From Escherichia coli (GTDB taxonomy: Bacteria; Pseudomonadota; Gammaproteobacteria; Enterobacterales; Enterobacteriaceae), in assembly GCF_041886205.1 (NCBI RefSeq), contig NZ_CP169029.1: 64,000 bases of DNA; one strand, given 5' to 3'. Both the position numbers and the translations under genes were made by a program. Below are positions 5,491 through 64,000 of the stretch, in pieces. How positions within the stretch are numbered: the stretch's first letter is position 1; the number at the start of each line of letters is the position of its first letter. The notes beneath the pieces are model-generated. The model did no database searches and was not told where the DNA came from. It worked only from the letters and a program-made list of their open reading frames with translations.

Positions 5491-6862
5491 ATGCCCTGGA
5501 TCGTGGCTGAGTGATACGTAAACCACTGACACAGGCAGCAATCACTGCCAGAATAGCCGCAGCCATCAGCGAAACGTGCGTACCATTATCACCGAACTGA
5601 TTTAGCATCAGCGCCACCAGTGCCGCGCCGCTACTCTGACCCAGTAGACGAGCCGTTCCTAACATGCCACTGGCTCCACCGCTACGTTCGCGAGGAGCGG
5701 AGGTAATAATGGTGTGGTTATTGGGTGACTGGAACAAGCCAAATCCAGCGCCACATAAGATCATCGGCCAGATAATATTGATATCCGCAGGTGACGCGGG
5801 CAGCAGAACCAGGGAAAAAAGCCCCGCAGCCATGATGAACAACCCTAGAGCACCCAGCAATCCTGCATGTACGCGTTCAATCAAATAGCCTGCCAACGGA
5901 GCCATCACCATCGTTGCTAACGGCCACGGTGTCAGAAGTAAACCTGTTTCGACTTCACTACGCCCGAGCAAGGTTTGCAGGTAAAAGGGCAGGGAAACCA
6001 TTGCCAGCATTTGTGCGCAGAAAGAGCAAACAGATGTGCAAATAGAAAGTGAAAACAGCGGGATACGCAGTAAATCCACCGGTAGCAGCGGTACGGGAAG
6101 AGAAAGCTGGCGGCGAATAAAGAAAATACCAACAACAACCATTACCACCAGTTCCGCAGCAATTAACGTCAGCGATTGCCCCTGAGCGAAACCACTCAAC
6201 GCAGTGATAAGCAGGCCGAAGGTTAACGCGTTCATCACGGCGCTGGGCAGGTCGAAACGGGGTTTACTGGCGCGAGAACCATTGGGTGGCAGAAAACGCA
6301 TCGCCAGAAGCAGGGCGATAATACCTAACGGTACGTTGATTAAAAATAACCATTTCCAGGATGCGATGGAGAGGATTGCTGCAGCAATTGTCGGCCCGGC
6401 AGCAGAAGAGACGGCAACAATAAACGAGTTTATGCCCATCCCTCTCCCCAGAAAACGTTGTGGATAGATCAGGCGGATAAGTGCGGTATTAACGCTCATC
6501 AACGCTGCACCGCCGAAACCTTGTATGACACGCGCAAGGGTGAGCATTTGCAGCGAATCAGAAAGGGCGCAGAACAGTGAAGACAACAGAAAAACGACCA
6601 GACCGCATTTATAAATACGTCGATAGCCAAACATATCGCCCAGAAACGAAAACGAGAGCAGGGAGATGACAATGGCGATTTGATAGGCGTTCACTACCCA
6701 GATGGAACTGGCTGGCGTGGCATGAAGGTCCGTGGCGATTGTTGGCAGGGCGACGTTGGCGATTGCGCCGTCAAGGACAGCCATCGAAATACCAATCACA
6801 ATGGTTAATATCGCACCGTATCGCTGGGGCAATGGCAGGCCGTCGGCCTGAACTTTTGGCAT
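5489..6862 (-). CDS. yebQ: MFS-family efflux transporter YebQ
   Basis: ORF track 5489..6973; start moved to internal ATG (MPKVQADGLPLPQRYGAIL) giving 457 aa; polytopic hydrophobic profile. Confidence 0.85.
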   Translation of the reverse strand: MPKVQADGLPLPQRYGAILTIVIGISMAVLDGAIANVALPTIATDLHATPASSIWVVNAYQIAIVISLLSFSFLGDMFGYRRIYKCGLVVFLLSSLFCALSDSLQMLTLARVIQGFGGAALMSVNTALIRLIYPQRFLGRGMGINSFIVAVSSAAGPTIAAAILSIASWKWLFLINVPLGIIALLLAMRFLPPNGSRASKPRFDLPSAVMNALTFGLLITALSGFAQGQSLTLIAAELVVMVVVGIFFIRRQLSLPVPLLPVDLLRIPLFSLSICTSVCSFCAQMLAMVSLPFYLQTLLGRSEVETGLLLTPWPLATMVMAPLAGYLIERVHAGLLGALGLFIMAAGLFSLVLLPASPADINIIWPMILCGAGFGLFQSPNNHTIITSAPRERSGGASGMLGTARLLGQSSGAALVALMLNQFGDNGTHVSLMAAAILAVIAACVSGLRITQPRSRA

Positions 6863-37467: not shown

Positions 37468-37474
37468 AATCTTC

Positions 37475-37517
37475 CGAAGCCGGACTGGGCGCGCTCAGCG
37501 CCACATCCGGCTTCGGC
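37475..37517. terminator. bidirectional terminator between convergent rnd and yeaX
   Basis: ccgaagccgga...tccggcttcgg extended inverted repeat. Confidence 0.45.
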
Positions 37518-58694: not shown

Positions 58695-59549
58695 ATGCAA
58701 CAAAAAATGATTCAATTTAGTGGCGATGTCTCACTGCCAGCCGTAGGGCAGGGAACATGGTATATGGGCGAAGATGCCAGTCAGCGCAAAACAGAAGTTG
58801 CTGCACTACGCGCGGGCATTGAACTCGGTTTAACCCTCATTGATACCGCCGAAATGTATGCCGATGGCGGTGCCGAAAAGGTGGTTGGGGAAGCATTAAC
58901 CGGTCTGCGAGAGAAGGTCTTTCTCGTCTCTAAAGTCTATCCGTGGAATGCTGGCGGGCAAAAAGCGATAAATGCATGCGAAGCCAGTTTACGCCGTCTC
59001 AATACTGATTATCTCGATCTTTACTTATTACACTGGTCTGGCAGTTTCGCTTTTGAAGAGACTGTCGCAGCGATGGAAAAATTGATCGCCCAGGGAAAAA
59101 TCCGCCGCTGGGGCGTTTCTAACCTTGATTATGCTGATATGCAGGAACTCTGGCAGCTGCCGGGGGGAAATCAGTGTGCCACTAATCAGGTGCTTTACCA
59201 TCTCGGTTCACGAGGAATTGAGTACGATCTACTCCCCTGGTGCCAGCAACAGCAGATGCCGGTGATGGCTTACAGTCCGTTAGCCCAGGCCGGGCGGTTG
59301 CGCAATGGACTGTTAAAAAACGCGGTAGTCAACGAAATTGCACATGCTCACAATATCAGCGCGGCACAAGTATTGTTGGCGTGGGTGATCAGTCATCAGG
59401 GTGTGATGGCGATTCCAAAAGCGGCCACGATTGCCCATGTCCAACAAAATGCGGCTGTGCTTGAGGTCGAACTTTCTTCAGCGGAATTAGCTATGCTGGA
59501 TAAGGCATATCCGGCACCAAAAGGAAAAACTGCGCTGGATATGGTGTGA
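58695..59549 (+). CDS. yeaE: aldo-keto reductase YeaE
   Basis: ORF track 284 aa; AKR family. Confidence 0.9.
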   Translation: MQQKMIQFSGDVSLPAVGQGTWYMGEDASQRKTEVAALRAGIELGLTLIDTAEMYADGGAEKVVGEALTGLREKVFLVSKVYPWNAGGQKAINACEASLRRLNTDYLDLYLLHWSGSFAFEETVAAMEKLIAQGKIRRWGVSNLDYADMQELWQLPGGNQCATNQVLYHLGSRGIEYDLLPWCQQQQMPVMAYSPLAQAGRLRNGLLKNAVVNEIAHAHNISAAQVLLAWVISHQGVMAIPKAATIAHVQQNAAVLEVELSSAELAMLDKAYPAPKGKTALDMV

Positions 59550-59552
59550 TGT

Positions 59553-59587
59553 TGTGTGCCGGATGCATCGCACCCGGCACACAACAT
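59553..59587. terminator. stem-loop between convergent yeaE and yeaD (REP-like)
   Basis: gttgtgtgccgg-atgcatcgcac-ccggcacacaac, perfect 12 bp inverted repeat. Confidence 0.45.
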
Positions 59588-60564: not shown

Positions 60565-61572
<1,008 letters not shown>

Positions 61573-61901
61573 CTATTTGTTAGTGAATAAAAGGTTGCCT
61601 GTAAAATTACAAAAACCTTACGCAGCGTCAAGCGGAATCGTGTCAATCATTGCGACAAATCAATCCTGTGCCTAAGCATTACGCGACTGACTCGCCTCAC
61701 TCTTCCTTTGGGCTTGAGACCACATGGGGTCGGCGCCCCGAATTTTAAAGGGCAATTACGATAAAAATGTGATTTTCATCACGATTTAGGTGCAGCCATT
61801 TCGTCGAGATCAAGTTTAGGACAAAATTTTGCCAGTTGGTGTTAATGTTTTGTTAGAATCAGTCACGTAATGTGAGCACGATTAAAGTGAGATGTGAGCA
61901 A

Positions 61902-62315
61902 ATGGCTAATAAACCTTCGGCAGAAGAACTGAAAAAAAATTTGTCCGAGATGCAGTTTTACGTGACGCAGAATCATGGGACAGAGCCGCCATTTACGGGT
62001 CGTTTACTGCATAACAAGCGTGACGGCGTATATCACTGTTTGATCTGCGATGCCCCGCTGTTTCATTCCCAAACCAAGTATGATTCCGGCTGTGGCTGGC
62101 CCAGTTTCTACGAACCGGTGAGTGAAGAATCCATTCGTTATATCAAAGACTTGTCACATGGAATGCAGCGCATAGAAATTCGTTGCGGTAACTGTGATGC
62201 CCATCTGGGGCATGTCTTCCCCGACGGGCCGCAGCCAACGGGTGAACGTTATTGTGTTAACTCTGCTTCTTTACGCTTCACTGATGGCGAAAACGGCGAA
62301 GAAATCAACGGTTGA
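61902..62315 (+). CDS. msrB: peptide methionine-(R)-sulfoxide reductase MsrB
   Basis: ORF track 61872..62315; start moved to [12 protein letters not shown] giving 137 aa; CxxC zinc motifs and catalytic RYCVNSA. Confidence 0.9.
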
Positions 62316-62356
62316 AAAAACGATTCAGCAACTTATTCCACAGGAGCGGAAAAATT

Positions 62357-62629
62357 ATGAATCTTGATGACATTATCAACAGCATGACGCCTGAGGTATA
62401 CCAGCGTTTGTCGACCGCCGTTGAACTGGGGAAATGGCCTGATGGCGTTGCGTTGACCGAGGAACAAAAAGAGAACTGCCTGCAACTGGTGATGCTGTGG
62501 CAAGCCCGCCATAATACCGAAGCACAGCATATGACAATTGACACAAATGGTCAGATGGTCATGAAGAGCAAACAGCAGTTAAAAGAAGATTTTGGTATCT
62601 CAGCAAAGCCTATTGCCATGTTTAAGTGA
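62357..62629 (+). CDS. yeaC: DUF1315 protein YeaC
   Basis: ORF track 62312..62629; start moved to MNLDDIINSMTPEV giving 90 aa. Confidence 0.8.
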   Translation: MNLDDIINSMTPEVYQRLSTAVELGKWPDGVALTEEQKENCLQLVMLWQARHNTEAQHMTIDTNGQMVMKSKQQLKEDFGISAKPIAMFK

Positions 62630-62735
62630 ATGAGTTATCTAGTATTTAAGCCTGTTATTAAGGGAGGGCAAATATACTTGTTCGGACGTCGTGTTTTAGC
62701 TGCAAGTAGGTTAAATGCAACACTGACAAGTATTA

Positions 62736-62772
62736 TCTGGCCTACAATGTCATTGAGGAAATGTAGGCCAGA
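62736..62772. repeat. 11 bp perfect inverted repeat with 15 nt loop between yeaC and pncA (REP-like, GGCCTAC)
   Basis: tctggcctaca-atgtcattgaggaa-tgtaggccaga. Confidence 0.4.
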
Positions 62773-62789
62773 GATGAATTCAACTAAAA

Positions 62790-63431
62790 TTACCCCTGCG
62801 TCTCTTCCCAGTCTGCCAGCGTATATAGCGTTGCCCCAGCTGCTGACATCTCCATAAACGCGTGCGCACTGTCCTGGGGCTGGATATTCACGCCACGACA
62901 ACCATCGGTAATCACGTTTACCTTATAACCTAACTGTAACGCGTCCAGCACGGTAAACTTCACGCAATAGTCAGTAGCCAGGCCCATAACGATCAATTCA
63001 TCGATTTCATGATCGCGTAACCAGTCATCGAGAGAGGTTTTCTGCCGACGGCCGTTATCAAAAAAGGCACTGTAACTGTCAACTAAAGGATTTTCGCCTT
63101 TATGGAACACCGCTGCGATCGCTTTTTGGTTCAGTAACGGATGTAATTGTGCGCCTTCACTGTTCTGCACACAGTGATCTGGCCAGAAGGTTTGTGGCAA
63201 ACCGTCGAGTTGGCCTGGCGTATAAGGCTCTACACCGTGCTGACTGGCAAAACTGCCGTGATTCGCCGGATGCCAGTCCTGGCTGGCGATAACCGCTTCT
63301 CCGCGCGACTGGCACCAGTCAATAAGGCGGTTAGCGACATCCACCGTACTGTCACCTTCCGGCACGGCGAGCGCGCCACCAGCACAGAAATCATTTTGTA
63401 AATCGACCAGTAACAGGGCGCGAGGGGGCAT
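62790..63431 (-). CDS. pncA: nicotinamidase/pyrazinamidase PncA
   Basis: ORF track 62790..63449; start moved to MPPRALLLVDLQNDF giving 213 aa; isochorismatase-like fold. Confidence 0.9.
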   Translation of the reverse strand: MPPRALLLVDLQNDFCAGGALAVPEGDSTVDVANRLIDWCQSRGEAVIASQDWHPANHGSFASQHGVEPYTPGQLDGLPQTFWPDHCVQNSEGAQLHPLLNQKAIAAVFHKGENPLVDSYSAFFDNGRRQKTSLDDWLRDHEIDELIVMGLATDYCVKFTVLDALQLGYKVNVITDGCRGVNIQPQDSAHAFMEMSAAGATLYTLADWEETQG

Positions 63432-63441
63432 TGCAGTCTCC

Positions 63442-64000
63442 TTAATCATCCGGCGTCAGTTCGCCGCGCAGGTTTTGGCTCATGGCCTTGCGAATGTTTT
63501 CAGTATCCAGTTCCTGGCTAAGCAGGTAATGCAGTTTGGTTAACGTGGCTTCTACAGTCATATCTGCACCGCCAATAACGCCAGCATGGGCGAGGGCGTT
63601 ACCGGTGGCATAACCACCCATGTTCACTTTACCGGACATACATTGTGTCAGGTTAACCACCACAATACCGCGATCGCTGGCTTCTTGTAATTCCTGCAGG
63701 AAGGCTTTGTTTTGTGGCGCATTACCCACGCCATATGAGCGCAGAATCAATGCTTTCACCGGTTGGCGCAGAAAATTGCGCACGACGTCAGCAGAAATCC
63801 CTGGATAAATCGTCACTACGCCAATTGGTTGTGGCGTGATTGGATGAACGATTAATTCCCCTTCACCGTGCGGGGCGGGTGGCGTATTCAAACGACGAAT
63901 ATGGATACCAGCTTCCAGTAACGGAGGAAGGTTTGGAGAGGCAAACGCATCAAAACCATCGGCATGGGCTTTGGTAGTGCGGTTGCCGCGATACAATCGG
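63442..64000 (-). CDS. ansA: cytoplasmic L-asparaginase 1, C-terminal part only; gene continues beyond window end
   Basis: Minus-strand frame open to window edge; ORF track shows fragment from an internal TTG; ...VVNLTQCMSGKVNMGGYATGNALAHAGVIGGADMT... recognised. Confidence 0.9.
   Translation of the reverse strand, partial: RLYRGNRTTKAHADGFDAFASPNLPPLLEAGIHIRRLNTPPAPHGEGELIVHPITPQPIGVVTIYPGISADVVRNFLRQPVKALILRSYGVGNAPQNKAFLQELQEASDRGIVVVNLTQCMSGKVNMGGYATGNALAHAGVIGGADMTVEATLTKLHYLLSQELDTENIRKAMSQNLRGELTPDD

Follow-up and report, generated by a model that had tools for sequence, protein, structure and literature searches.

The window analysed here is a stretch of 64 kb of Escherichia coli DNA in which two convergent genes, yeaC (62357-62629, + strand) and pncA (62790-63431, - strand), the latter coding for a nicotinamidase/pyrazinamidase, are separated by a spacer of 160 nt. 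The gene names were taken from an annotated record of 100% identity, that of E. coli MB53 (NZ_CP073939.1). The spacer holds a palindrome that had been described preliminarily as a perfect 11-bp inverted repeat between the two convergent genes, and this description proved exact. An inverted-repeat finder returned a left arm TCTGGCCTACA (62736-62746) and a right arm TGTAGGCCAGA (62762-62772), each of 11 nt and 100% complementary to the other, on both sides of a 15-nt loop atgtcattgaggaaa (62747-62761), with no strand assigned to arms or loop. The stop codon of yeaC lies 106 nt before the resulting hairpin and that of pncA 17 nt upstream of it in the mRNA sense.

Ten distinct sites of the window carry a perfect inverted repeat of at least 11 bp with a loop of 3-20 nt, compared to a mean of 0.3 when the whole 64-kb window is randomised by a first-order Markov procedure preserving dinucleotide frequencies. 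A chance origin of the palindrome in one 160-nt spacer is therefore very unlikely. The isolated hairpin has a predicted folding energy of -18.1 kcal/mol on the - strand and of -18.5 kcal/mol on the + strand, and z-scores of -4.2 and -3.4 were obtained against shuffled sequences when it was considered in its flanking context. The hairpin had no match in an Rfam scan of positions 61500-64000 with E-values up to 10, whose sole match was a chance twister-P1 (61690-61750, E=4.7), and it is absent from the annotation of the RefSeq records examined.

The palindrome resembles a well-known kind of E. coli element. REPs are imperfect palindromes of 30-40 nt with a GTAG tetranucleotide 5' of their foot, and two inverted REPs joined by a linker are referred to as a BIME (Ton-Hoang et al. 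2012, PMC3333891). BIMEs located elsewhere in K-12 (yaaX-yaaA, lspA-fkpB, caiB-caiA and araD-araA) read ...CTTATC[C/A/T]GGCCTAC, then the linker, then GTAGGCC[G/T]GATAAG.... The palindrome, written TTATCTGGCCTAC-A(15 nt)T-GTAGGCCAGA, follows the same plan (...TTATCNGGCCTAC-linker-GTAGGCCNGATAAG...). Its left arm corresponds to the tail (ATCTGGC-CTAC-A) of a decayed full-length REP on the - strand (62710-62745, GTAG-GCCAGAT...ATTTAAC) and its right arm to the head (GTAG + GCCAGA) of a second, inverted REP. The loop corresponds to the BIME linker, with 17 nt between CTAC and GTAG here versus 11-16 nt in three K-12 BIMEs. In the pncA-sense orientation, the stop codon is followed by ...CTGGCCTAC (the remnant of the proximal REP), the linker and the distal REP, GTAG-GCCAGAT...ATCTGGC. 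The GGCCTAC motif, noted beforehand as typical of REPs, is indeed a REP tail: the 14-mer TTATCTGGCCTACA (62733-62746) recurs letter for letter as the tail of one genuine REP of the K-12 araD-araA BIME.

A REP profile was built from 11 K-12 REPs from other loci and run against six sequences, in all six of which the element flanking pncA was the top match. In the window, the match covers 62715-62746 with 11.7 bits (E=0.026) and is the best of the 64 kb; 1 of 100 randomised 64-kb windows reached 11.7 bits anywhere. This score supports a likeness to the y/z consensus and is, for the window copy alone, marginal. The profile matched over its full length in Escherichia sp. E1V33 (L007; 27 bits, E=4e-7) and in K-12 (E=0.023), partially in SCU-482 (E=0.0025) and S88 (E=0.025), and with E=4.2 in L009.

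The features that define REPs and BIMEs are unequally preserved. The GTAG is found at the foot of the palindrome, CTAC at 62742-62745 (GTAG on the - strand) abutting ATCTGGC, and a second GTAG (62763-62766) abuts GCCAGA. The window copy at 62710-62745 does not form the self-folding imperfect palindrome of 30-40 nt expected of a REP, which the SCU-482 and L007 alleles do form. The stem of the distal REP is intact in these two alleles (-14.8 and -13.2 kcal/mol, respectively, canonical REPs ranging from -14 to -20), weakened in K-12 (-8.6 kcal/mol) and destroyed in the window (-3.8 kcal/mol, with a foot GCCAGAT/ATTTAAC). Of the second REP, the profile matches positions 27-37 only; what is left is the head GTAGGCCAGA (62763-62772), and no REP similarity was seen by eye past the right arm. 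The orientation of the two REPs and the linker fit a BIME, but the pncA-proximal REP is cut to ~10 nt.

Judged from its sequence, the palindrome is thus the head-to-head CTAC-linker-GTAG junction of two REPs, that is the core of a decayed BIME, and a degenerate remnant rather than an intact member of the family, because the palindrome of the distal REP itself is lost and the second REP is truncated. It shares with the GTAG-tagged E. coli REPs (y/z1/z2) and BIMEs an extragenic position at the 3' end of a gene, the GTAG/CTAC tags and the tail TTATCTGGCCTACA, and with BIME-2 the head-to-head layout and a similar linker length. It differs from them in the state of its two REPs and in that this variant is single-copy. 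It also differs from E. coli REPs in that the stable hairpin spans the linker between two REP ends instead of lying inside one REP. As such, there is nothing unusual about the palindrome, whose kind is well known. The copy of the K-12 annotation used here (NC_000913.3) contains zero REP features, even at the known REP pair 5565-5669, and its lack of a REP near pncA is therefore uninformative.

Further repeats were observed in the window. An 8-bp inverted repeat ATACTTGT/ACAAGTAT, with arms 44 nt apart, forms a long imperfect hairpin at 62674-62733, which directly precedes the palindrome when read in the yeaC sense; this hairpin overlaps the body of the decayed REP and may be due to chance. The short spacer of the convergent genes yeaE and yeaD holds a 14-bp perfect inverted repeat TGTTGTGTGCCGG...CCGGCACACAACA (59549-59587) whose core, GCCGGATG, is REP-like, and another piece resembling a REP is found at ~59495-59515. 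A palindrome GCCGGATGTGGCGCTGAGCGCGCCCAGTCCGGC at 37474-37516 fits a loose REP stem pattern and has no CTAC tag.

The pncA 3' flanks of other Enterobacteriaceae were collected in one contig scan that gave 78 flanks. An intact REP or BIME lies right after the pncA stop in Pseudocitrobacter, Lelliottia, Kluyvera, Enterobacter and Pseudescherichia-like genomes. A canonical REP directly follows the stop codon in six flanks (L010, L012, L013, L016, L031 and L038), a complete BIME with a CTAC-linker-GTAG core is present in four (L014, L018, L037 and L053), and a long palindrome GCCTACAG...CTGTAGGC in L034. GCCTAC or GTAGGC occurs within 100 nt in 13/78 flanks, among which the E. albertii one is probably a chance match. 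The intact elements at orthologous flanks support a REP/BIME ancestry of the palindrome. The remnant of a REP that had been proposed preliminarily is thereby upheld, both by these orthologous elements and by the profile match at 62715-62746, the best of the window. On this reading, a BIME, two inverted REPs, inserted just 3' of pncA, and both REPs have decayed. The facing REP ends, ...CTGGCCTAC and GTAGGCCAG..., pair into an 11-bp hairpin of ~-18 kcal/mol, unlike a canonical REP hairpin.

A bidirectional terminator had been suggested as the alternative to a REP remnant. In the intrinsic sense of the term, this suggestion finds no support: an intrinsic (Rho-independent) terminator consists of a G+C-rich stem-loop directly followed by a U-tract, and here the stem exists but the tails that follow it, AUAAUACUUG on the - strand and GAUGAAUUCA on the + strand, have no U-tract. 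Whichever strand is read, U-rich sequence precedes the stem and A-rich sequence follows, the reverse of the polarity of a terminator. A scan of 62200-63500 with promoter/terminator consensus sequences found no terminator-like site.

Transcript ends were nevertheless mapped at the K-12 counterpart of the hairpin. SMRT-Cappable-seq recorded a "novelTTS" at position 1852572 (+ strand) of K-12, at which an ansA-pncA transcript (start 1850834) and a pncA-only transcript (start 1851663) end (Yan et al. 2018, PMC6131387, Suppl. Data 1). In M9, 27 reads stop at this position, 19 continue past it and another 2 stop within the next 50 bp, the median read-through being 137 nt. The rich-medium counts are 66 reads stopping there, 3 continuing and 18 within 50 bp (PMC6131387). 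The paired bases of the K-12 hairpin span 1852537-1852569, and the transcripts end 3 nt past the stem. The preliminary description had tied its reading to REP similarity and to nearby transcript ends, both of which are present, the latter at K-12 1852572. By homology to this position, the 3' end of the ansA-pncA mRNA is predicted at 62735 of the window (- strand). Adams et al. (2021), whose curated list of Term-seq ends covers three conditions, have no 3' end at 18524xx-18526xx, perhaps because of low expression, and the TERMITe supplements have no entry near the hairpin.

Termination was located further downstream. A bicyclomycin-sensitive Rho region peaks at K-12 position 1852976 (+ strand), antisense to ydjE, with a score of 4.05 and p=1.5e-5 at the low resolution of 800-nt windows (Adams et al. 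2021, PMC7815308, Suppl. file 2). This region lies ~400 nt beyond the 3' end at the hairpin. Past the hairpin, C outnumbers G in either direction, and the GC skew changes sign at the hairpin.

A similar arrangement is known from other E. coli transcripts. Rho-terminated mRNAs end just past stable stem-loops devoid of U-tract, with evidence that these stem-loops block PNPase and RNase II; REPs made up 24% of the structures (Dar and Sorek 2018, PMC6061677). The K-12 orthologue has two hallmarks of this class, a U-less stem-loop with the 3' end immediately after it, in M9 and in rich medium, and bicyclomycin-sensitive termination downstream (1852976). The hairpin has a stable U-less stem-loop in common with REPs that stabilise mRNA (e.g. 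malE-malF) and with the protective stem-loops described by Peters et al. and by Dar and Sorek (2018). With the latter class it further shares, in K-12, a steady-state 3' end right after the stem and Rho-dependent termination further on. It differs from both in being the core of a BIME and not a REP hairpin, and a role against exonucleases is attributed to it by analogy. By the same analogy, it would work like a REP stabiliser or a Dar-Sorek stem-loop; by descent it is a REP/BIME derivative.

The interpretation retained with fair confidence is that of a degenerate BIME core whose inter-REP hairpin fixes the 3' end of ansA-pncA, most likely by exonuclease trimming after Rho termination downstream. 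The RNA polymerase coming from pncA would read past the hairpin, Rho would terminate transcription in the antisense region beyond, which is richer in C than in G, and 3'-to-5' exonucleases would then trim the RNA back to the stem, following the model of Peters and of Dar and Sorek. This sequence of read-through, Rho termination and trimming is favored because of the absence of a U-tract and because Rho termination takes place ~400 nt downstream in K-12. The most likely role of the hairpin is therefore that of a determinant of the ansA-pncA mRNA 3' end, and it probably acts by blocking exonucleases. The transcript data behind this role come from K-12 only, in which the gene on the far side of the hairpin is ydjE instead of yeaC. 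The same 3' end is expected in the present strain, which lacks the ydj genes, and would be made there by trimming and not by termination at the hairpin. The yeaC-sense RNA may use the hairpin too.

The most serious competitor, although an unlikely one, is that the hairpin itself acts as a U-less terminator, possibly in both directions, polymerases converging from pncA and from yeaC or ydjE colliding and being released there. In its favor, the hairpin lies between convergent genes and is a perfect palindrome of near-equal stability on both strands, and the proportion of reads ending in rich medium (66 versus 3 passing) is efficient for a pure processing site. A nascent-RNA stem-loop was reported to position such collisions (Wang et al. 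2022, bioRxiv 10.1101/2022.10.23.513370). The bidirectional terminators that Ju et al. (2019) and Wang et al. (2022) described for convergent genes have in common with the present hairpin a symmetric structure shared by both genes; the present one, however, is not flanked by A-tract and U-tract and its documented 3' end is pncA-sense only. The published tables examined record no 3' end on the opposite strand. The lack of U-tract on both strands, the reverse polarity of the flanks, the passage of 19/48 reads in M9 and the Rho-dependent termination downstream all argue against termination at the hairpin.

The hairpin is found throughout the species. With the K-12 spacer as query, at least 5,319 of the 5,426 complete E. 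coli genomes showed a homologous hairpin 3' of pncA, at one place per genome. The exact hairpin is thus not a dispersed repeat, a possibility that can be ruled out. In genomes bearing ydjE (e.g. K-12 and S88), the homologous hairpin is ~80% identical and lies in a 92-nt ydjE-pncA spacer (1852529-1852620 in K-12). The hairpin is therefore fixed and single-copy at the 3' flank of pncA, whichever gene adjoins.

Fourteen alleles were aligned, comprising four window-type and eight K-12-type alleles together with those of L007 and L009, which represent two other Escherichia lineages. The core of the stem, TGGCCTAC/GTAGGCCA (8+8 nt), varies at 0/16 columns. Variable columns amount to 7/15 in the loop, where differences in length are also found, to 17/26 in the REP body and to 8/17 in the spacer between the stop codon and the arm, which in addition contains an 11-nt indel. 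A Fisher test comparing the core (0/16) to the adjacent non-coding columns (32/58 variable) gives p=2.8e-5, a value that ignores phylogenetic relatedness and overstates the evidence because the aligned sequences are related. No compensatory change in the stem pairs was found among the 14 alleles: the core is invariant and the outer pairs merely break, for instance into C·A in K-12. Since the core stem never varies, the covariation test is uninformative. The conservation pattern is suggestive of a constraint on the hairpin core but falls short of proving an RNA structure. Between the window type and the K-12 type, the divergence was observed to jump from ~3% in the last 33 nt of pncA (62790-62822) to 35-65% just past the stop codon, which implies that the spacer haplotypes are much older, or evolve faster, than the flanking pncA.

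REP remnants are common in E. coli spacers. The palindrome could accordingly be a neutral REP/BIME fossil without function, conserved through recent ancestry or mutational chance, and the clear decay of both parent REPs as well as the lack of compensatory stem changes would agree with this. Such neutrality is nonetheless highly improbable: the core arms are invariant while the adjacent REP body differs at ~35% between haplotypes, this invariance extends to two other Escherichia lineages, and the K-12 mRNA 3' ends map exactly to the foot of the hairpin under two conditions.

The pncA flank is also the site of a gene-content polymorphism. The gene yeaC adjoins pncA in 1,089 of the 5,426 complete E. 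coli genomes (~20%), which are devoid of the ydj genes. In the other genomes, the window sequence matches at two separate places, and ydjE-ydjL are found between yeaC and pncA in K-12 and S88. The polymorphic part of the window is an 80-nt spacer segment (62630-62709, no strand assigned) present in ydj-less genomes only. At the corresponding position, K-12 carries an unrelated segment of ~9.1 kb (NC_000913.3, ~1852598-1861701) consisting of ydjE-ydjL and flanking spacers. The two haplotypes cease to be homologous at two exact points, the yeaC stop codon and, at the opposite border, the outer end of the decayed REP. Neither spacer haplotype is confined to one species-level lineage, L009 (E. coli SCPM-O-B-8794) being ydj-less and yeaC-adjacent and L007 having ydjE next to pncA. 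Among other genera, yeaC is adjacent to pncA in L021, L031 and L053, and a ydjE-like end, judged by eye, in L027, L032 and L036. Another difference in gene content was noticed just past the right end of the window, where E. coli MB53 (L003, 6291-7001) carries a SIMPL-domain gene between ansA and sppA; this gene is missing at the ansA-sppA position in K-12 and S88.

That the palindrome should be a REP/BIME active at the DNA level, as a substrate of TnpA(REP) or a site bound by gyrase or IHF, is extremely improbable. In vitro, TnpA(REP) cleaves strongly in the context GGCC|TACA and recognises the tetranucleotide GTAG (PMC3333891), and the outer end of the REP coincides with the ydjE-ydjL breakpoint, but TnpA(REP) requires a complete REP with a bulged stem (PMC3333891), which argues against its activity on a window copy whose own stem is destroyed (-3.8 kcal/mol), the element is single-copy and no match to the IHF consensus was seen by eye in the loop.

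A broader scenario, put forward tentatively and more doubtful than probable by a wide measure, combines the two aspects of the locus. The core hairpin would have been exapted and selected genus-wide as the ansA-pncA 3'-end determinant while the REPs decayed, and the outer end of the REP would be the exact breakpoint of ydjE-ydjL. If true, a breakpoint at the end of a REP would suggest that a metabolic gene cluster of ~9 kb was inserted or deleted in an event associated with a REP or with TnpA(REP).

Three aspects of the locus are mildly new. The functional hairpin that survives would be the core of a BIME rather than a REP hairpin, it would account for the published and so far unexplained "novel TTS" of ansA-pncA in K-12, and the ydjE-ydjL polymorphism, a common one in gene content, has its precise boundary at the REP's outer end. 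The finding has little import beyond annotation and offers a checkable case in which a decaying REP/BIME may have left behind the hairpin of an mRNA 3' end.
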